IMG/VR virus record: IMGVR_UViG_3300044617_001156
Length of the DNA: 64,000 nt
Direction: 5' to 3' (one strand)
Source of the DNA: a virus
Shown: one piece after another, positions 3,208 through 25,055 of the stretch
How the letters are laid out: every line of letters starts with the position of its first letter
Position numbering within the stretch: the first letter of the stretch is position 1
Notes under the pieces: generated by a model
What the model was told of the DNA's origin: nothing
The model's database searches: none
What the model saw: only the letters and a program-made list of their open reading frames with translations
Made by a program: the position numbers and the translations under genes

Positions 3208-3236
3208 TGGGCCCTGTAAAGTGTCCTAGTAATGTG
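3208..3236 (+). repeat. 29-bp GGGCCC boundary element, copy 1
   Basis: tgggccctgtaaagtgtcctagtaatgtg, 2 nt after the stop of 2726..3205. Confidence 0.95.
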
Positions 3237-3275
3237 AGAGACAGACTATCAAGGTCACTTCTTTCACTGGTACAC

Positions 3276-3304
3276 TTGACGGCAGTTCTCTGATCCGTTA
3301 AAAT
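3276..3304 (+). promoter_or_regulatory. sigma70-type promoter
   Basis: TTGACG-17 bp-TAAAAT upstream of the DUF262-like gene. Confidence 0.7.
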
Positions 3305-3391
3305 AAACAAATCAAACGACACACTGTTTGATCCCGCAATCTTCTTCTAACATACTGAAGAGGCAAGCAAAAACACATTTTTAATTTTCTT

Positions 3392-4558
3392 ATGCAAAGC
3401 AATCAAAATTTCTGTGTTCCCCTGAAGGAACGAATTTCACTTCTTGACTATTCGCTGATGCTTCAGAAGTTTAGAGCATTCAACGCACCACGTCAGTTTC
3501 AACGTCCTATCGCATGGGCTCCCGCAGATAGGAAAAAATTCTTCAACTCTATGTTGATGAACCGAGTAGAAGGCACTTTTGTCTTTGTTGATGTTACTCG
3601 TAGTATTAAAAGACTAGAAGATCTTGGAGAATATTCAGGAAAAACATATTCCTTCTTCAAGAAATTTCTTGATAGTGGATATAAGTACGTTGTTCTTGAT
3701 GGGAACAATCGTATGTCCTTTATGCAATCTCTATTCTCTGATGAATATACAATTCCCGAAGGAACGTATGAATTCATGAATGATGAACTTGGAGGAACCA
3801 TCTCTTCCTTTACTGTAAGGAAAGATAAACAAAAGTTTTCAGACCTTCCCGAAAGGGTTAGTTCGGTTCTCAAAGAACGACAAGCTTCCATTAGTCTCTA
3901 CACTCAAATTTCATTTGATGGAATGTCTGAAGTGTTCCAGAATGTGAATAGTGGTGTTCCACTGAACGCACAGGAACTTCGCAATGCTTATTCTACGGAG
4001 TGGGCTGATTACGTTCGCGAAATTTCTGATGAAATCAGCAGTCTTCTTGCAAAACTCTTCAAAGACCACCGTTTCCGTCTTAAGGGTGAAGAGTGGGTGG
4101 TAGATTGTCTTGACTTTGTTCTAAATGCAGTTACAACTGACCCAGACACCGAAGAAACAACTTGTAAAGGAATTTCTCAATCAACAAAAAACAAACTTTA
4201 TCTGAGTAATTTCCTCTGTGAGGACGATCAAAGTTTTTATTTCGATAAATTTGTTGAAATGATGGACTTCATTTCTCAGATGATTGATGATAAAATTTTG
4301 GATGTGAAAGTTCTTACACGTTCATCCGCAGTACAAAATCTTTATTGGATGATGTGTAATGGTGTTGATACTTACGAACAAGCAGTTGCTGCAGTTGAAG
4401 CACACGAAAAAGCATACAAAAATAAAGATCTCACCTACACATGCGGTGACGATGAAAAAACATTCAAAGAATGTTGTAATGGTATGAGTAAAGAAAACCT
4501 TGAATTTAGGCACATCATTTTCTCTGAAATTCTAGAAAAACTTCCTGTTGCGGCTTGA
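3392..4558 (+). CDS. DUF262 (GmrS/ParB-Srx superfamily) domain protein
   Basis: QFQRPIAW, VLDGNNR (DGQQR-like) and FQNVNSGVPL motifs. Confidence 0.7.
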   Translation: MQSNQNFCVPLKERISLLDYSLMLQKFRAFNAPRQFQRPIAWAPADRKKFFNSMLMNRVEGTFVFVDVTRSIKRLEDLGEYSGKTYSFFKKFLDSGYKYVVLDGNNRMSFMQSLFSDEYTIPEGTYEFMNDELGGTISSFTVRKDKQKFSDLPERVSSVLKERQASISLYTQISFDGMSEVFQNVNSGVPLNAQELRNAYSTEWADYVREISDEISSLLAKLFKDHRFRLKGEEWVVDCLDFVLNAVTTDPDTEETTCKGISQSTKNKLYLSNFLCEDDQSFYFDKFVEMMDFISQMIDDKILDVKVLTRSSAVQNLYWMMCNGVDTYEQAVAAVEAHEKAYKNKDLTYTCGDDEKTFKECCNGMSKENLEFRHIIFSEILEKLPVAA

Positions 4559-4636
4559 ACCAATTCTAAAACCGTCACACTGGGGTCCTAAACGACCCCT
4601 TTTCTGTTCTATAATAACTCTGTTACAAACCAATCC

Positions 4637-4834
4637 ATGAAATCCAATCAGTTCATCTACGTCAAACCGAAAAACTCTGAAGCAAAAGAAGTTTTTCAAT
4701 ATGATATGCGAGGACTTCATTCCTGCAAAATTCTTCAAAGGAATGGAACTGATATGCTTGTAAAGTCCATTGCTGGTGACTTTTACTTTCAAATTGATAC
4801 TGATAACGACAAAAACTGGGAACTGCTGAAATGA
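4637..4834 (+). CDS. hypothetical protein
   Basis: ORF directly after TATAAT at 4610; overlaps next gene (ATGA). Confidence 0.7.
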   Translation: MKSNQFIYVKPKNSEAKEVFQYDMRGLHSCKILQRNGTDMLVKSIAGDFYFQIDTDNDKNWELLK

Positions 4835-5019
4835 AAAAACTACTTGCTCTTCTTGTTTTCCTTCCGATTTCAGTATCAGCACAAGAAATTTATGCTATCA
4901 ATGTGAATAAGATGTGTGCTGCGATTGTAGGAATTCCTTATGCGTCTGATAACTTTAGTGATAAGGAATGGGAAGAATTTAAGGATTGTATGAGGTTCGT
5001 GGAGCAGTTTAAAGATTGA
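4831..5019 (+). CDS. hypothetical protein with signal-peptide-like N-terminus
   Basis: MKKLLALLVFLPISVSA. Confidence 0.65.
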   Translation: MKKLLALLVFLPISVSAQEIYAINVNKMCAAIVGIPYASDNFSDKEWEEFKDCMRFVEQFKD

Positions 5020-5048
5020 TTAAATAGTGGTAGAATAGAAGAAGACCA

Positions 5049-5234
5049 ATGGTTGCTCTATTACTTACGACAACCATATCCTGCTCTGAGGCCTTGAAAG
5101 TTCTTTCGCGTATTACAAGCGTTGTAGGACTTACAAGACAACAGAAGATTGAACTTATTCAAACAGTTCAACAGTCCATTCCTACGTGTCCCTTAAAAGT
5201 TGTTCCTAATGAAAGACCAAAACCCAGTAACTGA
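5049..5234 (+). CDS. small hypothetical protein
   Basis: ORF preceded by TGGTAGAAT extended -10. Confidence 0.6.
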   Translation: MVALLLTTTISCSEALKVLSRITSVVGLTRQQKIELIQTVQQSIPTCPLKVVPNERPKPSN

Positions 5235-5403
5235 TTTTGAAACTTCTGATGTTAAGTGGAACCGTGGGCTTGACCTGTTTATTGAAAGCGTTCATAAACC
5301 TGATAGTGACCTTAGACAGTGCGCTCATAACCAAAAGTGTTACAATGAACTCTTGGAAGTTCGGGAAACTGTGTTAGAATATCTGAAAACACTAAGAAGA
5401 TGA
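5200..5403 (+). CDS. hypothetical cyanophage protein
   Basis: Tightly packed ORF, WNRGLDLFIESVHKPD. Confidence 0.65.
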   Translation: MFLMKDQNPVTDFETSDVKWNRGLDLFIESVHKPDSDLRQCAHNQKCYNELLEVRETVLEYLKTLRR

Positions 5404-5639
5404 GTTCTTATACAGTATACTTTATTATCTTTGCTTGTATTGGATATTTAATCGCCACAGACCAAAGTGTCGCCAAAGCAGTTGTTTTTCTATCACAACT
5501 TGCACGTTTTGAATATGAGAAATTGAAGTGGTGGTTGATTATGAACCCAAAATCTCCCTGGGGTAGATATTCAATTCACCGTAGGTCTAATCAGTTAGCA
5601 AAAGAACTGATGAAAGAACTTGAAGATAAAACAAAATGA
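5400..5639 (+). CDS. hypothetical membrane protein
   Basis: N-terminal hydrophobic helix; ATGA overlaps at both ends. Confidence 0.65.
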   Translation: MSSYTVYFIIFACIGYLIATDQSVAKAVVFLSQLARFEYEKLKWWLIMNPKSPWGRYSIHRRSNQLAKELMKELEDKTK

Positions 5640-5875
5640 AGTATCTACCCTTACTTTTGGTACTGTTAGCATCTCCCGCAAATGCTATCACTTGGAACCA
5701 ATTCTGGAGACCATTTAACAATGGTTCATACTACCGTAGTCCTGTTTATTACAACTACACTCCAATATGTACTCAACTTGTTTATCACCGTGAGTATGTA
5801 CCTGGCGATGGTTTTAGATATGGATACGTAAGAACTTGGTCTGAAAGAGTAAGAGTTCCCTGTGGTTATCATTAA
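5636..5875 (+). CDS. hypothetical exported protein
   Basis: Signal-peptide-like MKYLPLLLVLLASPANA. Confidence 0.65.
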   Translation: MKYLPLLLVLLASPANAITWNQFWRPFNNGSYYRSPVYYNYTPICTQLVYHREYVPGDGFRYGYVRTWSERVRVPCGYH

Positions 5876-5906
5876 AACCTAGATAATGTGAACCTCTAAT
5901 AAAGGT

Positions 5907-6383
5907 ATGACTGGAATAAAAATCCAACCGAATACAACGGTTTTAGTATTAAACGCAAGTTATGAACCTCTGAATTTCTGTTCTGGGCGTAGAGCAGTTG
6001 TTCTCTTGTTGAAAGAAAAGGCACAGTTTCTTTCTTCAAGAGTTATACGTCTTTTGAATTATATTAGGATACCTTTCTCTGCCCTAACATCTCATAAACC
6101 CTCACGTAGTGCGATATACAAACGTGATGGAAATAAGTGTGCTTATTGTTCTGCTACAAAAAATCTAACGGTAGACCATATAATTCCTAAATCACGTGGT
6201 GGTGAAGATACTTGGGCTAATTTAACGATTGCCTGCTCCAAATGTAACACTAAAAAGGGGAATAGAACCCCAGAAGAATGTGGAATGGTCTTAAGAACTA
6301 AACCCAGAGCACCTTCTAATAAATTAATATTCTATATGGATGTATCTAAAGTTGATGAGTGGAGACAGTATTCTTTTGGTTAA
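5907..6383 (+). CDS. HNH endonuclease (McrA-like)
   Basis: VLVLNASYEPL, RDGNKCAYC, TVDHIIPKSRGG, NLTIACSKCNTKKG. Confidence 0.92.
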   Translation: MTGIKIQPNTTVLVLNASYEPLNFCSGRRAVVLLLKEKAQFLSSRVIRLLNYIRIPFSALTSHKPSRSAIYKRDGNKCAYCSATKNLTVDHIIPKSRGGEDTWANLTIACSKCNTKKGNRTPEECGMVLRTKPRAPSNKLIFYMDVSKVDEWRQYSFG

Positions 6384-6498
6384 GTTATAGTTATGTTAAG
6401 AAACCCACACAAACCTCCTAGATAGTGGTAGAATAATGAGGTCATACAAATGAACTGAAAATTATTTGCGATGATATTCTTTGTGCGTGGAGGTTATT

Positions 6499-6672
6499 AT
6501 GCACAATTTAATTTCTTACAATCAACTTGTATCTTGGAATCATTTGGAAAAAACGATTGATGAATATGTTGAACAAGATGAACTAATTAATGATTATTAC
6601 CAATGTATAATTGAATGTAGCGATAAACAGCAAGAATGTAAACGCATATGTAGGTCTATTCTATCACTATAA
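6499..6672 (+). CDS. small Cys-rich hypothetical protein
   Basis: GGAGG RBS before ATG 6499; C-x3-C-x6-C-x3-C pattern. Confidence 0.65.
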   Translation: MHNLISYNQLVSWNHLEKTIDEYVEQDELINDYYQCIIECSDKQQECKRICRSILSL

Positions 6673-6673
6673 A

Positions 6674-6728
6674 CCAGTTTAACAACCGCCCACCACCTCT
6701 TGACTTCAGCGTCAAGAGGTTTTATAGT
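6674..6728 (+). promoter_or_regulatory. stem-loop early promoter (PeSL-like), copy 1
   Basis: TTGACT(6700)-17-TATAGT(6723) embedded in inverted repeat acctcttgac/gtcaagaggt. Confidence 0.85.
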
Positions 6729-6750
6729 AGGTTCATAGAAATCCAAAGCA

Positions 6751-7215
6751 ATGACCCACAAAGCAACTCTCAAGGTTAAATTTGATACGGAATGGACTTC
6801 TACTGGTGGAGTTTATGACGATGAAACTCTTCCAGAGGAGCATTATACTTTTGAGATTCCTGTTGAGGATATTAACAGTATGCAACTGTTCCGCTTCTTT
6901 GGAACTATTGCCCGCACGATGGGACATAATGATTTTGGTATTATGAAAGGTGCTTGTTCGCTCGCATTTAATGATATGCGTAGTTTTGAGGATATGAAAA
7001 AGGTTGCTGACGAGTATGACTTGTATCTCTCAGAAGAATATGCAAACAAAGTTATTCCTCTGGAAAACAAGATTTATGATTTGGAAAAACAAGTTCGTGA
7101 CCTGAAAGCAAAACTATCACGCTGTGAAAATCCCGATGCTCCCGATTATACAGAGGAGGAAATGAATGCGATGAAGATACACAGAGTTGTAGGCGAATAT
7201 GTAGAAAACTTTTAA
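6751..7215 (+). CDS. hypothetical protein (C-terminal coiled coil)
   Basis: ORF between two duplicated promoter elements. Confidence 0.75.
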   Translation: MTHKATLKVKFDTEWTSTGGVYDDETLPEEHYTFEIPVEDINSMQLFRFFGTIARTMGHNDFGIMKGACSLAFNDMRSFEDMKKVADEYDLYLSEEYANKVIPLENKIYDLEKQVRDLKAKLSRCENPDAPDYTEEEMNAMKIHRVVGEYVENF

Positions 7216-7224
7216 GTACATAAA

Positions 7225-7279
7225 CCAGTTTAAAATCCGTCCATTTGCCCTTGACTTTCGCGGTCAAGGGTTTTATAGT
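7225..7279 (+). promoter_or_regulatory. stem-loop early promoter (PeSL-like), copy 2
   Basis: TTGACT(7251)-17-TATAGT(7274) with inverted repeat cccttgac/gtcaaggg. Confidence 0.85.
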
Positions 7280-7304
7280 AGGTACATACAAATCCAGCAA
7301 ATGA

Positions 7305-7526
7305 ATGTCTGAACGTTCTGAAAACTTTATGAAAGCAGTATGGGAAGCACGAAACACTGGTGCTGATACTGAGGAAAAATTAGTTGCAACTATTCTTCGT
7401 TTAGTTGCTGATAATGTAAAGTTTTACAATGCTCAAAACAATGTCGTTGTCCTAGATAAAAATGATGTACTTGAGCTCTCTAATGAAATTGAACAGACAT
7501 CTCAAGAAAAAAATGAAGAGGTTTAA
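7305..7526 (+). CDS. hypothetical protein
   Basis: ORF immediately downstream of promoter. Confidence 0.7.
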   Translation: MSERSENFMKAVWEARNTGADTEEKLVATILRLVADNVKFYNAQNNVVVLDKNDVLELSNEIEQTSQEKNEEV

Positions 7527-7752
7527 AGTCCTTGAATTTAAACATCGTGAAGACTGGGGACACGATGTATATCTAACGTTTCTTAAAGGAAGACACTTTT
7601 CCTTTATTCAACTTTCACTTGGATGGACTAACTTCCCTGGATATCCACATCTACAAGTATCCTCTGGGTGTGGTAAATTGTTTAGTATTATCTTTTGGTG
7701 CTATAAATTTGCACTTGATTTTGAAATTCTAGGACGTACTTGGAGGATTTAA
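7513..7752 (+). CDS. hypothetical protein
   Basis: ORF; ATG 7513 minimises overlap with the upstream gene. Confidence 0.6.
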   Translation: MKRFKVLEFKHREDWGHDVYLTFLKGRHFSFIQLSLGWTNFPGYPHLQVSSGCGKLFSIIFWCYKFALDFEILGRTWRI

Positions 7753-9210: not shown

Positions 9211-9214
9211 TAAA

Positions 9215-9759: not shown

Positions 9760-9783
9760 ATATGTGTGCCTAACACACATCTA

Positions 9784-11754: not shown

Positions 11755-11854
11755 ATTGTCTTAACACTTTGTAACACTAATCTAAAGTGAATGTTAAGAA
11801 ACGCACATAATTATCTACATAGTGGTAGAATGACTGAGTATCAAGGGATAACTT

Positions 11855-12024: not shown

Positions 12025-12049
12025 AGGAGCACTTCGGTGCTCCTTTTTT
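12025..12049 (+). terminator. rho-independent terminator
   Basis: aggagcac-TTCG-gtgctcct followed by T run. Confidence 0.9.
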
Positions 12050-12051
12050 AT

Positions 12052-12080
12052 TGGGCCCTGTAAAGTGTCCTAGTAATGTA
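12052..12080 (+). repeat. 29-bp GGGCCC boundary element, copy 2
   Basis: tgggccctgtaaagtgtcctagtaatgta, directly after terminator. Confidence 0.95.
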
Positions 12081-12094
12081 AGCACAACACTCAA

Positions 12095-12505
12095 ATGGGT
12101 ACCAGAAGCCGTATCGGCCTCCAACTTTCTGATGGTTCTATCCTTTCCATCTACAGCCATTTCGATGGATATCCCGAGTTCAATGGAGTAAAACTTGTAG
12201 AGAACTTCAATACTCTGGATAAGGTCAAAGAGTTGATTGATCTTGGTGATATTAGTTGCCTCTGGACGAATGTAGGTTGGAGTAATGAAACTCTAGAGCA
12301 GACTGGACCCCTTCCTTATAGTGGTCGCGGTGAAGATTGCCCCCCTCGCCTTGATGCTGACCTGTGTGAGTATCTGCTTCCTGATGGAGCAGAAGAGTAT
12401 CACTATATCTTCCGCAATGGTGAGTGGGTGTGCTACGATATGCACCAGTTTGATAACACTAAACTTCCTGAAGTTGTTGAAATCCCTGTGGAGGTAGCAG
12501 CATGA
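12095..12505 (+). CDS. conserved phage hypothetical protein
   Basis: MGTRSRIG...SIYSHFDGYP...GAEEYHYIF. Confidence 0.75.
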   Translation: MGTRSRIGLQLSDGSILSIYSHFDGYPEFNGVKLVENFNTLDKVKELIDLGDISCLWTNVGWSNETLEQTGPLPYSGRGEDCPPRLDADLCEYLLPDGAEEYHYIFRNGEWVCYDMHQFDNTKLPEVVEIPVEVAA

Positions 12506-13669: not shown

Positions 13670-13698
13670 TTGACGATTTAACTGTTTAGCACTATACT
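13670..13698 (+). promoter_or_regulatory. sigma70-type promoter
   Basis: TTGACG-17-TATACT followed by AAGGAG RBS. Confidence 0.75.
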
Positions 13699-15286: not shown

Positions 15287-15315
15287 TGGGCCCTGTAAAG
15301 TGTCCTAGTAATGTA
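15287..15315 (+). repeat. 29-bp GGGCCC boundary element, copy 3
   Basis: tgggccctgtaaagtgtcctagtaatgta. Confidence 0.95.
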
Positions 15316-15330: not shown

Positions 15331-15456
15331 ATGGATTGGTTTGACGACATCCAGGTTGAAGAACTGGAAAACTTTGATTTCATTGAAGAAGATGTGATTG
15401 AAGAGAGTGATAACAAATCATTCAATTCATATCTAAACTCCAACACCGATTATTGA
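15331..15456 (+). CDS. very acidic 41-aa protein (not in ORF track)
   Basis: MDWFDDIQVEELENFDFIEEDVIEESDNKSFNSYLNSNTDY*; 14 D/E, 1 K. Confidence 0.6.
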   Translation: MDWFDDIQVEELENFDFIEEDVIEESDNKSFNSYLNSNTDY

Positions 15457-15530
15457 TTACAACAGTGTGACGCCTGAGAAAGCGTCCACTGAACCCCCCA
15501 CTGACCCTGAAACTCCTGTATTTTAATCTC

Positions 15531-15731
15531 ATGAACGAACAAATTCCTAACGTGCTCCCCCACATCCAAGAACTCAAACTTGCCTGGAGGAAACAGGATT
15601 TCGTATTTACTAAGCAGCAACAAGAAGAATACGATTTGCTTCTTGCTACTCGCCGCGAAAGGGTCAAGCAATTCTATGCTGAAGGACGTGTATTCAAGGG
15701 TTCCTATAAAGCAAAGGAAGTTGAAATCTAA
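15531..15731 (+). CDS. hypothetical protein
   Basis: ORF after -10-like TATTTT at 15519. Confidence 0.7.
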   Translation: MNEQIPNVLPHIQELKLAWRKQDFVFTKQQQEEYDLLLATRRERVKQFYAEGRVFKGSYKAKEVEI

Positions 15732-16603: not shown

Positions 16604-16632
16604 TGGGCCCTCTAAATTGTCCCTATAGTATA
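16604..16632 (+). repeat. 29-bp GGGCCC boundary element, copy 4
   Basis: tgggccctctaaattgtccctatagtata. Confidence 0.9.
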
Positions 16633-17927
16633 TGATGAACCCGATGAAACTCCAACCACGGCCCCATCAAGAACGCGGCGATGCTGCGATGCAGAAATAT
16701 CCTAAGGGTCAGTTGATTTACCCCACGGGCGGCGGTAAGACCCTGAATATGATTATGGATGCTGTGCGTGAGTTTTCCGAGGAAGTTGTCTTTGAAAAAG
16801 AGTATCATCTCGGAGAGTTTGTTGGTGGAACCACAAATCGTAAATTGATTGTTGTAGTTGCTCCACGTATTTTGCTTACAGAGCAGCTTTCTTCCGAGTT
16901 TCTGGAGTTTATCACTAATGCTGCTGTTCTTCACGTACACAGCGGTGAAACTAGTCACAAATCTACCACAAATCCCGATGAAATCGATGAGTGGGTCTGT
17001 GATAATGTAGACAAGCATTGTCTCATCTTCACCACTTATAACTCTCTGGAGCGTCTTCAGGATGCTGATGTTGCAGTGGATACAATATATTTCGACGAAG
17101 CCCATAATTCAGTCAAGCGTAACTTTTTCCCTGCAACTGAGCACTTCGCTGCTGAGGCACGTCGTTGCTACTTCTTCACTGCTACCCCGAAACATTCCCT
17201 TGCTGTAGGTAAACCAGGCATGAATGATTCGGCAGTTTATGGTCAGGTAATCTGCAAAGTTCCTGCTCCTGAACTGGTTGCTGGTGGGTTCATTGTTCCC
17301 CCCAAAGTTATCGTCAAGCAACTGGAGATGGTTCAGGGTAAGCAGACCAACTTTGACCGCGACGCTGAGAATCTGCTGGAAACCATTGACGACAATGAAG
17401 TCAGCAAGATTCTGATTTGTGCTAAGGCAACCAAGCAGATTGTTTCGCTGGTTTCTGAGACTGACTTCTGTTCTGAGTTGGAGTCTCGCGGTTTCTCTTG
17501 GATGTACATCACGGCAAAGACTGGAGCTGTGATTGACGGCAAGAAAGTGAACCGCGAAGTATTCTTCGACACTCTATCTGCCTGGGGCAAGGACAACGAC
17601 AAGAAGTTTGTTGTTCTTCACCACTCCATCCTCGCAGAAGGTATCAACGTCAGCGGTCTGGAAGCAGTTCTCTTCCTCCGCAACATGGACTTCATTGGTA
17701 TTTCCCAGACCATCGGACGTTGCATCCGACTGCATCACGATGACGCCAAAGGTCTTCGCGATGGTAGCATCAAACCAGGCAACCTTGGTCAATACACCAA
17801 GAGTTTCGGTCTTGTCTGTGTTCCGGTGTACAGCAAGGTTGGTATCACCACCGCCAAGGCAGTTCAATCGGTTGTAGACACCATCTTCCAGAAGGGAGAA
17901 CCCGCCATCAGTGTAGTTCGCAGGTGA
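16632..17927 (+). CDS. SF2 DExH-box helicase (ResIII-like)
   Basis: LQPRPHQ, PTGGGKT (Walker A), FDEAH, TATP, LAEGINV, QTIGRCIR. Confidence 0.9.
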   Translation: MMNPMKLQPRPHQERGDAAMQKYPKGQLIYPTGGGKTLNMIMDAVREFSEEVVFEKEYHLGEFVGGTTNRKLIVVVAPRILLTEQLSSEFLEFITNAAVLHVHSGETSHKSTTNPDEIDEWVCDNVDKHCLIFTTYNSLERLQDADVAVDTIYFDEAHNSVKRNFFPATEHFAAEARRCYFFTATPKHSLAVGKPGMNDSAVYGQVICKVPAPELVAGGFIVPPKVIVKQLEMVQGKQTNFDRDAENLLETIDDNEVSKILICAKATKQIVSLVSETDFCSELESRGFSWMYITAKTGAVIDGKKVNREVFFDTLSAWGKDNDKKFVVLHHSILAEGINVSGLEAVLFLRNMDFIGISQTIGRCIRLHHDDAKGLRDGSIKPGNLGQYTKSFGLVCVPVYSKVGITTAKAVQSVVDTIFQKGEPAISVVRR

Positions 17928-18224: not shown

Positions 18225-18253
18225 TGGGCCCTTGAAAGTGTCCCTATAATGTA
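18225..18253 (+). repeat. 29-bp GGGCCC boundary element, copy 5
   Basis: tgggcccttgaaagtgtccctataatgta. Confidence 0.95.
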
Positions 18254-18285: not shown

Positions 18286-19032
18286 ATGTTCAAAACTGAC
18301 GGTTCCGTTCATCATGGCGGAGTAAAAAATGAAAATCAAACTATTCAGATTCTCAATGAATTGAAAATCTATTCCAACATTGTTGAAAAACGTGGCGGAA
18401 CTACTCAAAAGGCAGATGCTGTCGCTGGTGATAAGAAAATCAGCATCAAACGGAAAGAAGGTATCGCAAATGGATCATTTGACTGGTTTAACACAAGCAA
18501 GTATAATGATGTCTTAGGTAACACTTTCGATACCTTTCTTTCAAACATGAAAGAGATGCGTTCCATGCCCAAAGATCTCATCAAAGATGATGAGTTCATC
18601 TTGAAAGTGCGGGACAATTTCAATCAACTGTGTGAGTTGTCTTTGGACACTCTGAGTAGCGACCAAATTATTGATATTTTACGTCGCGGTCTGATTGATG
18701 CAAATGATGATTTTGATGTTGTAATTACCGACACTAAAACCAATACTCTGTATGTTTTTGGTGCTGATCAACATCCTGCTGTTGGTTATATCAATCAAGG
18801 ATTTACTGCTGTTCTTCAAGGTAAGGGAAAATCATCCCGAAAAGTGTTGTTTTCTGATGGCATAAATCTTTATGACTGCGGTCTGCGTATTCGTGTTACC
18901 AGTAACAATGGTATCAATGCTTTTCTTGGTTTAAGTAAAGCAAACAAGAACTCTCAGGTTGTAATCAAACTCCAACAAGATAACGTCAAACAACTACTCA
19001 TCTCCACCGAAGCGAAGAACTATGACTATTGA
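18286..19032 (+). CDS. putative Type II restriction endonuclease (PD-(D/E)xK fold)
   Basis: NE...KAD...ISIK catalytic-like pattern; overlaps the downstream methyltransferase by 11 bp. Confidence 0.6.
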   Translation: MFKTDGSVHHGGVKNENQTIQILNELKIYSNIVEKRGGTTQKADAVAGDKKISIKRKEGIANGSFDWFNTSKYNDVLGNTFDTFLSNMKEMRSMPKDLIKDDEFILKVRDNFNQLCELSLDTLSSDQIIDILRRGLIDANDDFDVVITDTKTNTLYVFGADQHPAVGYINQGFTAVLQGKGKSSRKVLFSDGINLYDCGLRIRVTSNNGINAFLGLSKANKNSQVVIKLQQDNVKQLLISTEAKNYDY

Positions 19033-19984
19033 AATCCTACAGCAATCCGCAGAGAAAATGACTGAAATTCAACAGTCATTCGATCTTATCTACATGGATC
19101 CTCCGTTTGGATTGCAAAGGGATTTTAAGATGTTAGAGCAAGATGGTGAAGAAAAAGGATTCTCTGATAACTGGGAGTCCTTTGATGATTATATTTTATG
19201 GTATGCAGATATCATAAACAAGGCATGGGACAAATTGAATAAGGATGGGTGGATTTATCTGCACAACAACTTCATTGGTAACGCACTTGTTTTATCTCAT
19301 GTAGATCGAAAAGTGCGTGATGCCTTTTATACAAACATTTCATGGAAACGTTCTGGTCCAAAGAATAACATCAAGAACGGATGGGGTAACATTGTAGATT
19401 CAATTATGGTTCTCCGTAAGGGTAATCCATACTTTGAAGTTGAATATACAGACCTTGACTCAAAGTATGAGAAGAATAGCTTTAAGAACCAAGATGAAAA
19501 GGGATTCTATGCTCTCGCCAAAACTACAGGAGAAAAGAGTCGCCCTGGACGAATCTTTGACTATAAAGGTTACAAACCAGAGTATGGGTGGCGAGTAAGT
19601 GAAGACATGCTCAAAGAGATGGATGAGCATAACTTACTGCACTTTGGTAAGAATACAATCTACAAAAAGATTTACCTAGAAGATAGCAAAGGCGTCCCAG
19701 TTCAAAATCTATGGGATGATGTGTATTTCATCTCTCGCAGTGAATCGAACAAGCGTAAGTATCCAACACAAAAACCACTCAAACTATTGGAGAGGATTAT
19801 TAAGTCATCTTGCCCTGAAAATGGATGGGTTTTTGATCCTTTTGCTGGGTCTGGAACTACAGCAATCGCATCGCAACTTCTTGGAAGAAACTGTATCACA
19901 TGCGACATCAATCCACAGTCAATACAATTAGTGACTGAAGCAATCAAAGAAACAGAAAATCCTCTCATTTCTGCAATGAATTGA
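19022..19984 (+). CDS. amino (N6-adenine/N4-cytosine) DNA methyltransferase, beta class
   Basis: DLIYMDPPF (motif IV), then YPTQKP and DPFAGSGTT (motif I). Confidence 0.93.
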   Translation: MTIEILQQSAEKMTEIQQSFDLIYMDPPFGLQRDFKMLEQDGEEKGFSDNWESFDDYILWYADIINKAWDKLNKDGWIYLHNNFIGNALVLSHVDRKVRDAFYTNISWKRSGPKNNIKNGWGNIVDSIMVLRKGNPYFEVEYTDLDSKYEKNSFKNQDEKGFYALAKTTGEKSRPGRIFDYKGYKPEYGWRVSEDMLKEMDEHNLLHFGKNTIYKKIYLEDSKGVPVQNLWDDVYFISRSESNKRKYPTQKPLKLLERIIKSSCPENGWVFDPFAGSGTTAIASQLLGRNCITCDINPQSIQLVTEAIKETENPLISAMN

Positions 19985-19986
19985 AC

Positions 19987-20015
19987 TGGGCCCCTGAAAG
20001 TGTACCAGTAGTGTA
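19987..20015 (+). repeat. 29-bp GGGCCC boundary element, copy 6
   Basis: tgggcccctgaaagtgtaccagtagtgta, 2 nt after MTase stop. Confidence 0.95.
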
Positions 20016-20030
20016 GTTCACACGGTCCGC

Positions 20031-20276
20031 ATGACCCGCACCCGTAAGCAAACCGCAAATGTTGCTGCTGAAGTGAAAGTGCCTGAGGTTCTCATCACTC
20101 GTCAGCAATACATTCAAGACATTAAGGTTCGCTGGGAAATCCATCAGTATGAAGTCAACAAACTTCGTGAAGATGTAACCAAGTTCAGTCAAACTGTTTC
20201 TCCTTATGTGAAGCAAATGATTGACTACACGACCGAAAAGTATCAACAACTGTTCGCTCGTCGTCTGACTGCTTGA
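20031..20276 (+). CDS. hypothetical protein
   Basis: Single-gene unit between elements 6 and 7. Confidence 0.7.
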   Translation: MTRTRKQTANVAAEVKVPEVLITRQQYIQDIKVRWEIHQYEVNKLREDVTKFSQTVSPYVKQMIDYTTEKYQQLFARRLTA

Positions 20277-20285
20277 TGATACACC

Positions 20286-20312
20286 AAGGCACCATCACTA
20301 GGTGCCTTTTTT
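20286..20312 (+). terminator. rho-independent terminator
   Basis: aaggcacc...ggtgcctt followed by T run. Confidence 0.85.
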
Positions 20313-20326
20313 ATTGAAAATGTTAG

Positions 20327-20355
20327 TGGGCCCTGTAAAGTGTCCTAGTATTATG
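20327..20355 (+). repeat. 29-bp GGGCCC boundary element, copy 7
   Basis: tgggccctgtaaagtgtcctagtattATG; last 3 nt are the next start codon. Confidence 0.95.
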
Positions 20356-21249
20356 AAGAACACCCATCTCAATCATCCCGAAGATCAGATTCTTACAGGT
20401 GATCTATCTGTGCTGGATTGGATGTATGAATCTGATAGTTTCATCTCCACAAAAATTGATGGTGCTCCGGCTGTAGTGTTTGGAACTGACCCTGAGACTG
20501 GTAAGTTCTTCTGTGGGACAAAATCAGTTTTTAACAAGAAGAAAATCAAGGTAAATTACAGCATTGAAGACATTCTCCGTAATCACGGTAACACTCCTCG
20601 CGTTGCAGAGATTCTTATTGCCTGCTTCAACAATTTCCCCAGGATTGATAACATCATTCAAGGTGATTTCATCGGATACGGTGGAAACAGCACTTATCGC
20701 CCCAACACTATCACCTATCACTTTCCTAGTGTAGTCAAAGAAGCAATCATCTTTGCTCCTCATACGACCTATTCTGGTACAAATCTTCGTGAATGTGTTG
20801 CATCCTTTGGTGCATCAGTTCCTGAGTGTGAGAATGTGAAATGGGTGCAACCTGATGCATCTATCTGTCCTTATCGTGAGGATATTGAAGATGTGTGTAA
20901 GTTTGCAAAGCAAATGAGCACACTGTGTGAGTTCGTGAATGATAAGCAAGCAACAGAACTCAAGAAAATCATCAATTCTTACATCCGTGAGGGTAAGGAG
21001 GTTGACGAACATGAAATTGCAGAAAATTATGATGTTGATATCAACCTGCTGCGACTTCACAAACTCGTTGCATCAATCAAGACCGATTTGTTCTTCTTCA
21101 TCTCTGATGACGATAGCATCTCCTGTGAGATTGATGGTAAAGAGTCTGCGCATGAAGGGTATGTAATGACGAATCGTTTTGGAACATACAAGATTGTTGA
21201 CCGCACTCAATTCAGCCGTGCTAACTTTACACTTCAAAAGAACTGGTAA
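20353..21249 (+). CDS. conserved T4-type protein with ligase-like nucleotidyltransferase motifs (DUF6267-like)
   Basis: MKNTHLNHPED N-terminus; TKIDGAP, IQGDF, HEGYV, YKIVDR. Confidence 0.6.
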   Translation: MKNTHLNHPEDQILTGDLSVLDWMYESDSFISTKIDGAPAVVFGTDPETGKFFCGTKSVFNKKKIKVNYSIEDILRNHGNTPRVAEILIACFNNFPRIDNIIQGDFIGYGGNSTYRPNTITYHFPSVVKEAIIFAPHTTYSGTNLRECVASFGASVPECENVKWVQPDASICPYREDIEDVCKFAKQMSTLCEFVNDKQATELKKIINSYIREGKEVDEHEIAENYDVDINLLRLHKLVASIKTDLFFFISDDDSISCEIDGKESAHEGYVMTNRFGTYKIVDRTQFSRANFTLQKNW

Positions 21250-21256
21250 TGATTAG

Positions 21257-21285
21257 TGGGCCCTTGGAAGTGTCCTAGTAGTATG
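21257..21285 (+). repeat. 29-bp GGGCCC boundary element, copy 8
   Basis: tgggcccttggaagtgtcctagtagtATG. Confidence 0.95.
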
Positions 21286-21441
21286 AGAACCACACACCGA
21301 TTCCAAAGTTTCAAAGAAGCACTCAACTTTCTGATGAGTGAGTTTCAAATGAGCAATCAGCAAGCAACTCACTTCATCTGGGACAATCAGTTCACTATGG
21401 GAACTGACCGTGCTATTTGGATTACTGAACCTACCAACTGA
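21283..21441 (+). CDS. hypothetical protein
   Basis: ATG inside element 8. Confidence 0.6.
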   Translation: MRTTHRFQSFKEALNFLMSEFQMSNQQATHFIWDNQFTMGTDRAIWITEPTN

Positions 21442-21443
21442 TT

Positions 21444-21797
21444 ATGACTACTACCATCACTGAATACGCTGCACAGAAAGATGCACAAAACACAATCTAT
21501 CTTAACATTGTTAAGTATGGTCTGATGCTATGTGATGCTCTCGGTCACGATGCGCCTGATAATTACTTCTATGAACTGGATAGTTCTGGTCGTAAGTATC
21601 ACAGAATCTGGATGTATATTGGAGACCGTCGTGATAGTATTCATGCTTTCATTGATAAGCAAACTGGTTCAGTATTGAAACCTGCAAGTGTAAAAGCGCC
21701 AGCTAAGGGTGAGAGGTACAACCTCCTCTCTATTCCTTCCCGTGAGAAGTGTTTTGAAAGTGCTGATGCTTTTGGTGGTTATCTGTACGCACGATGA
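21444..21797 (+). CDS. conserved phage hypothetical protein
   Basis: GRKYHRI...IHAFIDKQTG.VLKPASVKAPAKGERYNL. Confidence 0.75.
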   Translation: MTTTITEYAAQKDAQNTIYLNIVKYGLMLCDALGHDAPDNYFYELDSSGRKYHRIWMYIGDRRDSIHAFIDKQTGSVLKPASVKAPAKGERYNLLSIPSREKCFESADAFGGYLYAR

Positions 21798-22057
21798 CTT
21801 ACTCTAACCTTTCAAAGATTCGTCCGAAACTGAGAACATCAGGTAATGTAACAGGTAACTTCGGCCGCCCAAAATCAAAAGCAGGTTCATCACTGAATGA
21901 GATTGGAATGAGTACTAAAGAAAGCATTAAATGTGCTACACAGGATGAGTATCTGAATCGTCTTTATTCTGCATTTGATAATACTGATGATGCAAAGTTA
22001 AAAAAGTTTCTGTATCAAGAGATTCGTAAGATTCTTATCACACAAGGAAAGTGGTGA
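21794..22057 (+). CDS. hypothetical protein
   Basis: ATGA overlap; SNLSKIRPKLRTSG. Confidence 0.7.
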   Translation: MTYSNLSKIRPKLRTSGNVTGNFGRPKSKAGSSLNEIGMSTKESIKCATQDEYLNRLYSAFDNTDDAKLKKFLYQEIRKILITQGKW

Positions 22058-22064
22058 GAAATAG

Positions 22065-22093
22065 TGGGCCCTTGAAAGTGTCCTAGTAGTATG
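22065..22093 (+). repeat. 29-bp GGGCCC boundary element, copy 9
   Basis: tgggcccttgaaagtgtcctagtagtATG. Confidence 0.95.
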
Positions 22094-22339
22094 AACAACA
22101 CTACCGACCGCAAGTTTCACAACATTTCCCTTGAAGATCGTGAAATGTTTGCTTACAACAACTATCAAGAGCGTAAGAAACAGCAACTCGCTGCAGTTGC
22201 ACCTGAACTGCGTATCAAATACTGCTTCGAGTTTCTGAAAGGTTACGTCGCTGAAGGTGATACTGAGATGGCAAAGCGTTGCTATGATGGTATTGCTAAG
22301 TACAGCGAAGTTCTTGACTATTCCGAAGCACACTTCTGA
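22091..22339 (+). CDS. hypothetical protein
   Basis: ATG inside element 9. Confidence 0.7.
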   Translation: MNNTTDRKFHNISLEDREMFAYNNYQERKKQQLAAVAPELRIKYCFEFLKGYVAEGDTEMAKRCYDGIAKYSEVLDYSEAHF

Positions 22340-22440
22340 TTCACAATGACTGGTGGCATTATCTTCCTGATCGCTTATGCAATGGGCGCAGGACATGTTT
22401 TTCTGATTCGTTATCTCTCACGTAAAGGTATTATTTGATT

Positions 22441-22584
22441 ATGAAATACGAAGTCACTTTATACGTTTCTGGACGTAACTTCAAGGACATTGTAATTGCT
22501 AATTCACCAACAGATGCAAGAGTTACAGCTGAAGCACGCAATCCTACAGCACGTGTTGTAGCAGTCAACGGAACGTTTAAGTAA
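22441..22584 (+). CDS. small hypothetical cyanophage protein (47 aa)
   Basis: MKYEVTLYVSGRNFKDIVIANSPTDARVTAEARNPTARVVAVNGTFK*. Confidence 0.65.
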   Translation: MKYEVTLYVSGRNFKDIVIANSPTDARVTAEARNPTARVVAVNGTFK

Positions 22585-22585
22585 C

Positions 22586-22614
22586 TGGGCCCCCGAAACT
22601 GTACCAGTAGTAAC
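22586..22614 (+). repeat. 29-bp GGGCCC boundary element, copy 10
   Basis: tgggcccccgaaactgtaccagtagtaac, 1 nt after stop. Confidence 0.9.
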
Positions 22615-22629
22615 ACCACACATCAAACC

Positions 22630-22827
22630 ATGAACTACTACAAAATCACTGAAATTGACTTTGACTTTGGCGGTGAAGATATCACTCAAGAAGAGATTGA
22701 TACTATCGTCACTGAAACAAAAGGTTGTCTCTGGACTTCACCAACTGAAGAAGATCTAGCAGACATCATCTCAAACAACACTGGTTGGTGCATTAACTCT
22801 CTGTCCTATGATGTGATTGCTGCCTGA
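22630..22827 (+). CDS. acidic hypothetical protein
   Basis: ITEIDFDF...EEDLADIISNNTGWCINSLSY. Confidence 0.7.
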   Translation: MNYYKITEIDFDFGGEDITQEEIDTIVTETKGCLWTSPTEEDLADIISNNTGWCINSLSYDVIAA

Positions 22828-22967
22828 TGATTGAAACTGATTTCTTTATTCTCACTCATGATCAATACCATCAATTCAATTCTGAAGCATCAGAACTTGG
22901 TTTAAGTATTGATTATTATCTCAGTGAGTTTATGGACATTGATGGACCATGGGTCATCACTGATTAA
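22827..22967 (+). CDS. small acidic protein (46 aa)
   Basis: MIETDFFILTHDQYHQFNSEASELGLSIDYYLSEFMDIDGPWVITD*; TGATG coupling. Confidence 0.6.
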   Translation: MIETDFFILTHDQYHQFNSEASELGLSIDYYLSEFMDIDGPWVITD

Positions 22968-22970
22968 AAC

Positions 22971-22999
22971 TGGGCCCCTGAAACTGTACCAGTAGTATA
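22971..22999 (+). repeat. 29-bp GGGCCC boundary element, copy 11
   Basis: tgggcccctgaaactgtaccagtagtata. Confidence 0.95.
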
Positions 23000-23020
23000 A
23001 CCACTCACCACTGAAACCAA

Positions 23021-23338
23021 ATGACCCGCCTGATTGAACGCCAAATGAATGAAGCAATCCTGAAAGAAAAGGATTGGAAAAAGGATAACACTGAAGTTAT
23101 CAACTACAGCAACTGTTCTGATGTGTTTCTGTATGGTAATCTGATTGCTCGCATTGGCGAAACCTGGTTAGAGTTGTTCGATGGAGGTTATCAATCAGTA
23201 ACTACAAAGTCTCGGCTAAATGCTATTCTCGCTGCTCATGGTGCAGACAATGAGTATGTGTTTCAGAAGAAAGGTCAGTGGTTTGTTAACTACGAAGGCG
23301 GACCAATCCCCTTCTTCTCCGGTATGCGCCTGAACTGA
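23021..23338 (+). CDS. conserved phage hypothetical protein
   Basis: LYGNLIA...GGYQSVTTKSRLNAIL...VFQKKGQWFV. Confidence 0.75.
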   Translation: MTRLIERQMNEAILKEKDWKKDNTEVINYSNCSDVFLYGNLIARIGETWLELFDGGYQSVTTKSRLNAILAAHGADNEYVFQKKGQWFVNYEGGPIPFFSGMRLN

Positions 23339-23692
23339 ATGTTGTTTAATCTAGTTCTGTTCTCATCCATCATTGTTCGCTATCACTTTCACCACTGATG
23401 ATTGAACTCCTCATTGCATCAACATTCGCTACCGCTCTGTCTTCGACTATCATCGGACAATCACTCATTGGACCTAATCTTCTTCGGACTGATTATCTCA
23501 CTGACCAAAATCAAATCATCACGATTCAAGAGACAATCACAGAACTCCCAGAAGACCAACCGTGTAACCTATGACTAAGTTTCTCATTGGAACAATCACA
23601 GGTATTATACTCTCAACAGTAGGATTCCAAGGGTTAGCAAACCTAGGTAATCGTACTATCACAACCATCGAATCATTCGCTCAATCACAACA

Positions 23693-23881
23693 ATGAACAA
23701 CGATCAAAAGGATTCAATGCTTGCAAACATCCTAGAGCAAGTACAACAACAAATCGTTAATCTAGTAGAGAACGATCTAATCGAAGAGTCTTACTCTCTA
23801 TACAAAGAATGGGAAGAACATTTCAACAATAATATCACTGAACTAGAAATCATTACTATCAATGATCTGACTGCTATTTGA
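23693..23881 (+). CDS. hypothetical protein
   Basis: ORF track. Confidence 0.6.
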   Translation: MNNDQKDSMLANILEQVQQQIVNLVENDLIEESYSLYKEWEEHFNNNITELEIITINDLTAI

Positions 23882-23976
23882 TAGTAACAAGAGGAAGGGA
23901 GTTTGCCTCATCTAAGTAAACAAAGTGACTTCTGTAAAGTAGAGATAATTCCTATTCATTTGGTGATGTGGATTAT

Positions 23977-24007
23977 AGAGAGGGGAGTGGTGTCCTCTCT
24001 CTTTTTT
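23977..24007 (+). terminator. rho-independent terminator
   Basis: agagagggga...tcctctctct plus T run. Confidence 0.75.
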
Positions 24008-24219
24008 ATTGTCTAAAAACCTTGTTTTAATGCTTAAATGTTAGGAAATCAATAAAAAAAGGCTATTTTAAATATATCTGAGTTTTCAACAGCCTTGTGG
24101 AAAAGTGTGTGGAATATGTGGAAAAATACCCTTATGAAGTCTTATAATACCCTTTAAAGCCTCATAGACCTTGTGATCTTACGTTGCGTCAGCCTAACAC
24201 ATAAGTTCTCACACGTCAA
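24001..24219. other. candidate replication origin (AT-rich tract, DnaA-box cluster, leftward promoter)
   Basis: TGTGGAAAA at 24096 and 24117, one-mismatch boxes at 24083 and 24108; AT-rich 24001-24078; - strand TTGACG-17-TAGGCT at 24219-24191. Confidence 0.5.
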
Positions 24220-24316
24220 CCCCCACTTTCCCGGAATATCATAAAATCCCCACACAACTCCCAGAATACTCTGAGACCCCTCTAAAATCGCCTGTAAGGA
24301 CACTAAATACCAACAC

Positions 24317-24345
24317 TTGACGTATGTCTCATTATCCCTTATAAT
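24317..24345 (+). promoter_or_regulatory. sigma70-type promoter
   Basis: TTGACG-17-TATAAT. Confidence 0.85.
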
Positions 24346-24377
24346 TGCCTCATACAACACATTCAAGGAGAACACTT

Positions 24378-24551
24378 ATGTCGGTTGCCTACAGTCAAGC
24401 ACAGAAGCAGCGTTATCGTATTACCCTTGACATTTCAGCATATCCTGATTTCGATCCACACAACATCAACTGGAATAAGTTATTTGAACTCGAAGGATCT
24501 GAGAACTGTGAGGCATATGTAGAAGACCTAAGTCGTCCTGATAAGTGGTGA
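24378..24551 (+). CDS. hypothetical cyanophage protein
   Basis: AAGGAG RBS; YRITLD...DFDPHNINWNKLFEL. Confidence 0.75.
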   Translation: MSVAYSQAQKQRYRITLDISAYPDFDPHNINWNKLFELEGSENCEAYVEDLSRPDKW

Positions 24552-24580
24552 TATAAGAGCATACAATAAGACTCCTTAAG

Positions 24581-24604
24581 AGACTCCTATAAGGGGTCTT
24601 TTTT
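24581..24604 (+). terminator. rho-independent terminator
   Basis: agactcct-ata-aggggtct plus T run. Confidence 0.65.
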
Positions 24605-24610
24605 AATGGC

Positions 24611-24639
24611 TTGACATACCTTACAGATCCTTGTATAAT
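24611..24639 (+). promoter_or_regulatory. perfect sigma70 consensus promoter
   Basis: TTGACA-17-TATAAT. Confidence 0.9.
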
Positions 24640-24723
24640 ATCTTTGTGGAGATTGATAAGTGCATTAAGAGCTTATACAATGAGCCTACCGAAGGTAATC
24701 ACGAACGTAGTGAGTGATTGAAT

Positions 24724-24752
24724 TGGGCCCCGTAAAGTGTACCGGTAGTATG
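24724..24752 (+). repeat. 29-bp GGGCCC boundary element, copy 12
   Basis: tgggccccgtaaagtgtaccggtagtATG. Confidence 0.95.
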
Positions 24753-25019
24753 ACCACCACACTCACACCAATGACTAACACTCTCCAAGCAAAAGTACAG
24801 GACACCACCTATAACGGTTGGACTAACTTCCAGACTTTCAATGTTGCACTCTGGATCAACAATGATGAGGGTCTATATGATATCGCCCGTGAGACAGGTT
24901 CCTATCAGGACTTCGTTGCATATATCAGTGAGTTCATGTTGCAAACTCCTGATGGTGTAAGGTTCAATGACCCCGCTGTGAATGTGATCGAACTGAATAG
25001 CGAAGTGTTCGATTTCTGA
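24750..25019 (+). CDS. conserved phage hypothetical protein
   Basis: TYNGWTNFQTFNVALWINNDEGLY...TPDGV. Confidence 0.75.
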   Translation: MTTTLTPMTNTLQAKVQDTTYNGWTNFQTFNVALWINNDEGLYDIARETGSYQDFVAYISEFMLQTPDGVRFNDPAVNVIELNSEVFDF

Positions 25020-25026
25020 TGATTAG

Positions 25027-25055
25027 TGGGCCACGTAAAGTGTCCTAGTAATGTA
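25027..25055 (+). repeat. 29-bp GGGCCC boundary element, copy 13
   Basis: tgggccacgtaaagtgtcctagtaatgta (GGGCCA variant). Confidence 0.9.

Follow-up and report, generated by a model that had tools for sequence, protein, structure and literature searches.

Thirteen copies of a 29-bp element, typically beginning with TGGGCCC and all in the same orientation, lie in a stretch of viral DNA of 64,000 nucleotides (IMG/VR record IMGVR_UViG_3300044617_001156), which we call the window and which is part of a T4-like cyanomyovirus. With middling confidence we read this element as a phage-specific gene-start signal, i.e. a promoter that often has a built-in start codon, which would double as a linker for homologous recombination. 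The reading is drawn from a comparison of the window with related loci, in which the element is found as a large family.

Copies of the element in the window

The 64-kb window was searched with the pattern TGGGCCCNNNAAANTGTNC, allowing one mismatch and using shuffles as control. Thirteen copies were found, all on the plus strand, with 0-1 mismatch and without indels. These are precisely the sites listed in the first-pass annotation, which a model had made from the letters alone. In the shuffled window 0.01 copies are expected, and no shuffle gave 13. A looser pattern of 25 nt with 3 mismatches led to the identical 13 sites. Using a position weight matrix built from the copies, the 13 sites score 35-45 bits, and a scan of both strands of the 64 kb gave no further site of 12 bits or more; the structural half is free of copies, as had been noticed before.

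The placement of the copies was also described correctly in the annotation. Ten of them begin 1-7 nt past a stop codon (those at 3208, 15287, 16604, 18225, 19987, 21257, 22065, 22586, 22971 and 25027), and two stand behind terminators, as terminator-like hairpins with T-runs are present at 12025-12044 and 20286-20308. The units bracketed by the copies comprise a DEAD/ResIII helicase with a small open reading frame (ORF), a 248-aa ORF with an N6_N4 methyltransferase, a DUF6267 gene and groups of small ORFs. These contents match the cassettes proposed earlier, except that the 248-aa ORF, taken there as part of a restriction-modification pair, was not confirmed as an endonuclease. The imperfect dyad pointed out in the annotation has its ACTGG/CCAGT arms in copies 6, 10 and 11, while folding is no better than for shuffled sequence.

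The conserved unit exceeds 29 bp: it includes an upstream 'AC', an A at position 30 and a G-poor, A/C-rich tract extending to about position 47. The 5' flank of the element is rich in stop codons (T-G/A-A at -10 to -8).

Distribution and variation of the element family

All family statistics given here refer to copies in the loci among the IMG/VR pattern matches listed, and the totals are lower bounds. The pattern scans of IMG/VR gave at least 834 copies in at least 174 loci, with one dominant strand per locus; five matches on the opposite strand look like chance. In large contigs the copies form a single array of 14-19 kb, the range for the family as a whole being 14-24 kb. The 219-kb contig IMGVR_UViG_3300044701_003160, which is 100% complete according to CheckV and has a TerL 92% identical to that of the window, carries 12 copies, 11 of them inside 14 kb and the twelfth near the opposite end of the contig. 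This contig is referred to below as the complete relative.

The compact element is absent from the four cultured cyanomyoviruses Syn9, S-SZBM1, S-CRM01 and S-SCSM1, and a BLAST search with the element gave no match in the GenBank phage collection. Among 185,579 genomes of prokaryote species the full element was found only on one 2.5-kb contig of a metagenome-assembled genome, and host mimicry was rejected as an explanation on this basis. The contig in question (CAYVBV010000194.1, binned as an uncultured Polynucleobacter) has four copies and is most likely mis-binned phage DNA, but in principle the contig might have a bearing on host range.

The family consensus reads (T-G/A-A) t w r w w A C in the 5' flank, TGGGCCC y T G AAAGTGT c c y w r TAGTAT r in the element, and A g C A C C A downstream. 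Invariant across lineages are TGGGCCC, A11, A13, T15, G16 and T23-A24-(G)-T26-(A)-T28, and the variable positions are 8-10, 12, 14 and 17-22. The lineage variants (AAAGTGT-CCTAG, AAAGTGT-ACCAG, AAAGTGT-CCCTA, AAAGTGC-ATCAG, AAAGTGC-GTCTA and AGATTGT-CCCTA) alter positions 12, 14 and 17-22 and never A11, A13, T15 or G16. T23, A24 and T28 are conserved at 94-98%, G25 and T26 at 87-99%, and position 22 is a purine in 95% of the copies. Within a genome the variable positions are homogeneous, the identity being 0.78 within loci versus 0.56 between loci.

More than 80% of the family copies lie 0-7 nt past the upstream stop codon. A terminator-like hairpin is found no more than 25 nt upstream in 13 of 353 unique copies, and in 2 of 13 in the window. 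Positions 30-47 are A/C-rich with 7-8% G, regardless of whether they are coding or leader. The 5' flank varies with the upstream gene family and positions 18-29 with the downstream family, a pattern that crossovers in the invariant core would produce.

A start codon inside the element

An ATG is present at positions 27-29 (hereafter ATG27) in 182 of the 356 unique copies. In 96% of these it begins an ORF of 40 or more codons (median 84), compared with only 31-44% of the copies that have ATA, GTA or ATC there. Two reading frames are closed by the element itself, with TAG/TAA at 23-25 and TGA/TAA at 28-30, and the third is open. Where the start codon is not ATG27 it is found 38-60 nt from the element start, and the interval from position 27 to there is nearly empty. 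A second in-frame ATG follows exactly five codons after ATG27 in 72 of 175 copies of the ATG type, and 64 of the 175 have no other start codon within 12 codons.

More than 20 divergent DUF6267 orthologues begin at ATG27 despite differing N-terminal lengths, and the Pfam alignment of the domain begins at residue 3 of the protein in the window. Several of these genes, in the window as well as in relatives, stand behind a terminator and consequently need a promoter of their own. The mRNA must therefore include position 27, and for genes with ATG27 behind a terminator the transcript would most simply begin inside the element. Literature searches for the motif and for leaderless starts in cyanophages gave nothing usable.

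Exchange of gene cassettes at the elements

Alignment of the window to every related locus gave homology blocks, and those of 200 nt or more have 848 internal ends, 27% of which fall within 25 nt of one of the 13 elements. This corresponds to 17.6 ends per element junction versus 2.6 per other gene junction (about 7-fold), where 1.9 are expected if the ends were uniformly placed. Counted from the element start, blocks begin at -10 to +9 and finish at +20 to +39. The enrichment is real and its size uncertain. Gene-order conservation is 0.17-0.26 at element junctions; for other gaps it is 0.27-0.37 if they measure 40 nt or more, and for tight junctions 0.32-0.55.

A replacement is seen in one relative (locus L092): its two flanks share 80% and 87% identity with the window, and the cassette bounded by copies 5 and 6 (18225 and 19987) has been replaced. 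An unrelated 201-aa ORF and a D12-class methyltransferase take the place of the 248-aa ORF and the N6_N4 methyltransferase, and there is no mutual homology. Comparison of syntenic relatives, which the annotation had proposed, thus gave breaks enriched at the elements and a methyltransferase cassette swapped exactly between two copies. The same genomic position is occupied by a beta-class enzyme (N6_N4) in the window at 18286-19984 and by a Dam-like enzyme (D12) in L092 at 807-2319 on the minus strand, and the swap may represent an exchange of restriction-modification or anti-restriction modules. Another relative (L027) has one extra unit of element plus ORF at copy 12. Copy 9 and its ORF are jointly absent from L027 and from variant contigs of two lake metagenomes, with no element left behind.

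As the genome has a dozen or more near-identical copies of 30-40 bp, in one orientation and at gene borders, these would also act as linkers, used by the phage's own system for homologous recombination. Such a role would explain the exact gain, loss and replacement of cassettes at the elements as well as the homogenisation within genomes. Assembled contigs from lake metagenomes end at the repeats. The joints 12022>19984, 15270>19984, 23000>25086 and 23005>16334, found in contigs from four lake metagenomes, were considered as deletions or circles; their short side is 25-38 nt, and they are best read as strain variants with another subtype of the element.

Proposed function of the element

From these observations we infer promoter activity, a start position, a recognition factor and a recombination mechanism. 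The element, lying in the hyperplastic early region, would be a compact promoter without sigma70 consensus that the host RNA polymerase reads, probably with the help of a putative specificity factor. Transcription is predicted to start within the 3' part of the element, at about positions 22-27. Half of the downstream genes would then be translated from ATG27 on an mRNA that is leaderless or has a leader of 3-5 nt, and the other genes would start 12-20 nt past the element, behind a short A/C-rich leader without Shine-Dalgarno sequence. The only sigma70-like -10 candidate fitting this start is kAAAGT at positions 10-15, which predicts a start at 22. In this alignment the equivalents of A-11, A-9 and T-7 would be the invariant A11, A13 and T15, and the lineage variants touch only the equivalents of -12, -10 and -8. 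A scan for the sigma70 consensus had its sole match inside an element in copy 7 (TTGAAA-16-TAAAGT). There may be a second start in tandem, near position 35.

The first-pass annotation had offered a promoter as one of three models. A phage-specific promoter is indeed the most likely primary function, and it is the geometry of that model, nTGGGC-17-TAnTrT with a start 6-8 nt downstream, which conflicts with ATG27: in 182 of 356 copies this codon lies inside the proposed '-10' TAnTrT.

Several observations weigh against the function proposed here. As a -10 box, kAAAGT mostly lacks the T at -12, has no -35 partner and has no TG extension in register, and a start at 22 leaves the very strong conservation of TAGTAT (23-28) unexplained. 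Since a mere 13 of 353 copies stand behind a terminator, most copies are also read through from upstream, and the in-frame constraint on ATG27 could arise in such read-through transcripts. In several of the copies behind a terminator, a TAnTnT hexamer precedes the element by 8-9 nt; it could provide the start, and the element would then be a 5' untranslated region (UTR). Part of the enrichment of homology ends stems from an edge effect, alignments being prolonged by the conserved 30-mer, and the loci, being related, are not independent of one another. Some indels take the element along with the gene and leave no copy, e.g. 22065-22385/22440, so not every event can be a recombination between two elements. 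Finally, no candidate recognition factor was found in the complete relative.

As for such a factor, it is a tentative possibility, to which we give clearly less weight than to the gene-start reading itself, that a phage specificity factor, delivered with the virion or made very early, redirects the cyanobacterial RNA polymerase so that transcription starts 0-5 nt before the built-in ATG. It might be an analogue of MotA/AsiA or a sigma-like protein without detectable homology, and it would be expected to co-evolve with the lineage variants (AAAGTGT-CCTAG, AAAGTGC-ATCAG, AGATTGT-CCCTA and others). The annotation had suggested looking for a sigma- or MotA-like factor elsewhere in the genome. In the complete relative the sole sigma-like gene is a 181-aa gp55-like ORF, and searches made without a positive control gave no MotCF match above the cut-off and no AsiA match. 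An 85-aa helix-turn-helix ORF in the array of this relative (about 200.6-200.9 kb of the contig, handle G027; also recovered as L184:1408-1665 on the minus strand) has a weak likeness to sigma70 region 4 (E = 0.006, below the cut-off). It was rejected as a general factor, being absent from the window and almost all other loci.

Two further ideas were dropped. A peak of TAnnnT at -29 from start codons had been taken as a preferred 17-nt leader; it stems from a few orthologous gene families. Readings of the element as a sigma54, ECF sigma, SigF, NtcA, LexA-box or T4 late-promoter site gave no fit on inspection against the consensus sequences.

Alternative explanations

The element could be a host sigma70-type early promoter with the geometry given in the annotation, which we find somewhat unlikely. 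Here (C)TGGGC would be a surrogate for the -35 box, followed by a 17-bp spacer and TAGTAT (23-28) as -10 box, and transcription would begin near position 35, about 7 nt further downstream. TGGGCCC/AAAGTG may be bound by an activator in the manner of T4 middle promoters, and genes with ATG27 would be translated from read-through transcripts only. The conservation of T23, A24 and T28 matches the key -10 positions T-12, A-11 and T-7, the spacing of the three conserved blocks is about one turn of the helix, and the TAGTAT/TAnTnT found behind terminator T-runs upstream of some copies resembles a genuine -10. A transcript from about 35 would fit the second ATG at position 42 and the non-ATG27 starts at 42-48, and as most copies have no upstream terminator, read-through mRNAs with ATG27 would exist. 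However, the 64 copies without an alternative start, including terminator-preceded DUF6267 genes with their conserved N-terminus at ATG27, would yield from such a promoter mRNAs without a start codon. A start codon in fixed register with a -10 box that does not serve it is left unexplained, the leaders would be merely 7-10 nt long and without Shine-Dalgarno, and the conservation of G25 and T26 is unlike that of sigma70 positions -10 and -9. The surrogate -35 matches TTGACA at just 2-3 positions, and the consensus scan called this geometry at no copy. Less probable still is that the element acts on the RNA level, as an intercistronic signal for translation initiation, re-initiation or processing in polycistronic early mRNAs, in which AUG27 would be presented about 36 nt past the upstream stop, with the other two frames closed and an unstructured A/C-rich tract behind it; in one variant it could be the operator of a RegA-like translational repressor. 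The near-fixed distance from the upstream stop codon, the 96% of copies without upstream terminator, the in-frame ATG27 with stop codons conserved in both other frames, and the A/C-rich tract that is independent of coding status would all be accounted for. CA-rich sequence downstream of a start codon reportedly enhances leadered and leaderless translation in E. coli (Martin-Farmer and Janssen 1999), and the possible -10 upstream of some terminator-linked copies would make the element a 5' UTR. As an RNA structure, the third model of the annotation, an RNA-processing or translation element, is not borne out: folds of eight copies have z from -2.1 to +1.5 and none is stable, about 40% of copies have broken outer stem pairs that are not compensated, column couplings are strongest between neighbouring positions, and there is no match to an Rfam family. 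Complementarity to the anti-Shine-Dalgarno is limited to AAAG, copy 2 adjoins the T-run of a terminator and leaves no room for an upstream promoter, and it is not obvious what an unstructured RNA signal would need the invariant GC-rich 5' block for. A role on the level of translation is plausible for the 3' end of the element together with the A/C-rich tract.

A dedicated site for site-specific recombination at which cassettes would be captured and excised, be it integron attC-like or acted on by a specialised recombinase, appears very improbable. It would account for fixed-length, co-oriented copies at cassette borders, for replacements with exact borders and for the GGGCCC palindrome as a core. 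As the annotation had stated, no recombinase is present in the window, and neither tyrosine (PF00589) nor serine (PF00239) recombinases are present in the complete relative, in a search where the positive controls worked. Furthermore, every cassette has its own start signal, unlike the promoterless cassettes of integrons, the element is removed along with the gene in some indels, and T4-type phages recombine efficiently on homologies of less than 50 bp (PMC2839356). Of the cassette model in the annotation, the part that holds is that elements mark cassette borders, as seen from the homology ends and the exact replacement; an integron-like site-specific system is unsupported, and homologous recombination at short repeats fits better. 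The remaining alternative, a promoter for a phage-encoded single-subunit RNA polymerase of the T7/SP6 type starting at G25, is the one we find hardest to believe, and it is largely refuted. Positions 11-25 (AAAGTGTCCCTATAG) resemble the SP6 promoter AGGTGACACTATAG, with agreement at 11 of 14 positions. An unbroken conserved block of about 29 bp that includes the start, and lineage-specific variants in the region equivalent to -14 to -3, would be in line with such a promoter. However, a search for the polymerase domain PF00940 gave no match in 26 related contigs (about 1.3 Mb) or in the complete relative, and its positive control found the Syn5 polymerase at E = 4e-77.

Relation to known systems

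The closest known kind is the PeSL (promoter-early stem-loop) of T4-type phages, a regulatory repeat in hyperplastic regions which serves as a linker for homologous recombination (Arbiol et al. 2010, PMC2839356; Comeau et al. 2014, PMC4122927). A PeSL consists of a near-consensus sigma70 promoter (TTGACA-N17-TATAAT or a close variant) and a terminator stem-loop, and PeSL mini-circles have been demonstrated experimentally (PMC2839356, PMC4122927). Like PeSLs, the present element is short, conserved, co-oriented and dense in hyperplastic regions, where it flanks small or accessory ORFs; breakpoints of indels and replacements among relatives coincide with it; and the proposed mechanism is the phage's own homologous recombination without a dedicated recombinase. 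Unlike PeSLs, it has no consensus -35/-10 pair (the scan found 0 of 13 window copies in the geometry of the annotation) and no stem-loop in 96% of copies, is shorter and far more uniform, and has a start codon inside half of its copies. PeSL circles have been seen in experiments, whereas the element is known from assembled contigs alone. Judged from its sequence, what would be new is a compact, start-codon-bearing, non-consensus promoter module that is also a recombination linker, and what would be of known kind is the PeSL-type linker.

T4 middle promoters combine a MotA box (TGCTT core) at -30 with a -10 box and are used through sigma appropriation by AsiA/MotA. The element resembles them in being a phage-specific class in which a conserved upstream box replaces the -35 and a phage factor is implied. 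It differs from them in having no TGCTT box and in an embedded start codon that is incompatible with their geometry, and no MotA or AsiA homologue was detected in the complete relative by the searches without positive control. To our knowledge, cyanomyoviruses lack both proteins.

Leaderless mRNAs are exemplified by lambda cI and by many transcripts in actinobacteria. A start codon at or near the predicted 5' end, the lack of a Shine-Dalgarno sequence and A/C-rich sequence downstream are shared with these; here the leaderless state follows from sequence geometry only, and it is tied to a repeated 29-bp module and not to ordinary -10 boxes. With integron attC arrays the element has in common that co-oriented repeats delimit exchangeable cassettes. 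It departs from them in that there is no integrase and no supported attC-type fold, each cassette brings its own signal for expression, and the phage is lytic.

Other promoters and features of the window

A second promoter architecture, here called 'long', consists of an (A/C)(T/C)GTC(C/T)AC box, exactly 29 nt, TAnnnT, 6 nt and ATG. It is found in the window (Table 1) and in the related loci L006, L014, L015, L029, L031 and L100. This spacing implies leaderless mRNA, as judged from sequence, and since it is the canonical leaderless spacing in the same phages, leaderless starts would recur in the group. After the -10 of long promoters the sequence aAGAGTCAAAgg is conserved, in Syn9 (L116) at 46340-46370 and 47260-47290 and in S-SZBM1 (L115) at about 2385, which points to early mRNAs with a conserved 5' end in these marine and estuarine relatives.

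A box (A)AG(T/C)GTCCAC is found upstream of small genes in Syn9, S-SZBM1 and the phage group of the window. This box overlaps the AAAGTGTCC core of the element, which has an AAGTGTCC box in common with a longer upstream motif of Syn9 and S-SZBM1; in these two the shared GTGTCC(AC) box is part of a different architecture. In the long architecture the box is 29 nt 5' of a normal TAnnnT -10, whereas in the compact element it adjoins the start-codon region and is preceded by TGGGCCC. Doron et al. reportedly described a non-host-like early-gene regulatory element in marine T4-like cyanophages (ISME J, 2016). The motif with the GTCCAC box may be this element.

The intergenic regions 6400-6498 and 11770-11854, upstream of the ORFs at 6499 and 11855, have in common a third motif, GTTAAGAAAC(C/G)CACA...TAGTGGTAGAAT, which may be another promoter class. 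Canonical host-type promoters (TTGACA/G-17-TATAAT-like) are seen at 24611-24639, 24317-24345, 26465-26493 and 13670-13698, some with leaders that have a Shine-Dalgarno sequence. As the element, the long promoters and the host-type promoters coexist, the phage would use at least three promoter designs.

The assignment of the window to a T4-like cyanomyovirus is based on gp6-, gp8-, gp13/14/15- and gp17-like genes, tail-sheath genes and a gp7-like ORF of 3972 aa. The nearest isolates, S-SCSM1, Bellamy, S-SM2 and P-SSM2, have 75-78% nucleotide identity in the region from terminase to tail sheath, and DNA of the window is present in about 20 metagenome runs of lake water, with no RNA run listed for it. 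The host is probably a freshwater Synechococcus or Cyanobium. The 3972-aa ORF (30890-42808), located between the gp6-like and gp8-like baseplate genes, is unusually large; S-CRM01 has a gp7-like virion protein at the equivalent position. An N4-like virion polymerase was considered for this ORF and rejected, as the PHROG matches are to the T4-type baseplate/tail module with its gp7-like giant protein. Base composition changes stepwise from 36-46% G+C in the early/accessory half (1-27000) to 30-33% in the baseplate/structural part (28000-48000).

Table 1. Element copies, terminator-like hairpins and the long promoter in the window
Feature	Position	Strand	Remarks
Element copy 1	3208..3236	+	2 nt past stop of ORF 2726-3205; next gene 3392-4558 (GmrSD_N-like), with long leader
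Terminator-like hairpin and T-run	12025..12050	+	Directly adjoins copy 2
Element copy 2	12052..12080	+	ORF 12095-12505 starts 14 nt past element; A/C-rich leader without Shine-Dalgarno
Element copy 3	15287..15315	+	7 nt past stop codon; next ORF 15331-15456
Long promoter, second architecture	15482..15533	+	GTCCAC box, 29 nt, TATTTT, 6 nt, ATG
Element copy 4	16604..16632	+	Helicase ORF 16632-17927 begins at final base of element (ATGATG)
Element copy 5	18225..18253	+	Left border of cassette 18286-19984 (248-aa ORF and N6_N4 methyltransferase)
Element copy 6	19987..20015	+	Right border of methyltransferase cassette; next ORF 20031-20276
Terminator-like hairpin and T-run	20286..20314	+	14 nt 5' of copy 7
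Element copy 7	20327..20355	+	ATG at 27-29 is start codon of DUF6267 gene 20353-21249
Element copy 8	21257..21285	+	ATG at 27-29 in frame with ORF 21283-21441
Element copy 9	22065..22093	+	ATG at 27-29 opens ORF 22091-22339
Element copy 10	22586..22614	+	Next ORF 22630-22827; 15-nt A/C-rich leader
Element copy 11	22971..22999	+	Next ORF 23021-23338
Element copy 12	24724..24752	+	ATG at 27-29; second in-frame ATG at 24771
Element copy 13	25027..25055	+	GGGCCA variant; next ORF 25089-25289

Implications

The initiation of early genes in T4-like cyanophages is only partly known, and the MotA/AsiA timing system of T4 is lacking there. In the element family a compact, non-consensus start signal with a built-in start codon is available in hundreds of natural versions that can be aligned, with clear invariant positions and lineage-specific variants. 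If the proposal of a specificity factor is true, this would be a new promoter class and a leaderless mode of expression for the early genes of these phages. In practical terms, the 30-mers break short-read assemblies of the phages at each copy.

The idea behind PeSLs, that regulatory repeats shuffle accessory genes, would be extended to uncultured freshwater cyanophages with a differently designed motif, and the swap of the methyltransferase cassette shows how anti-defence and accessory genes can be exchanged without disturbing their neighbours.

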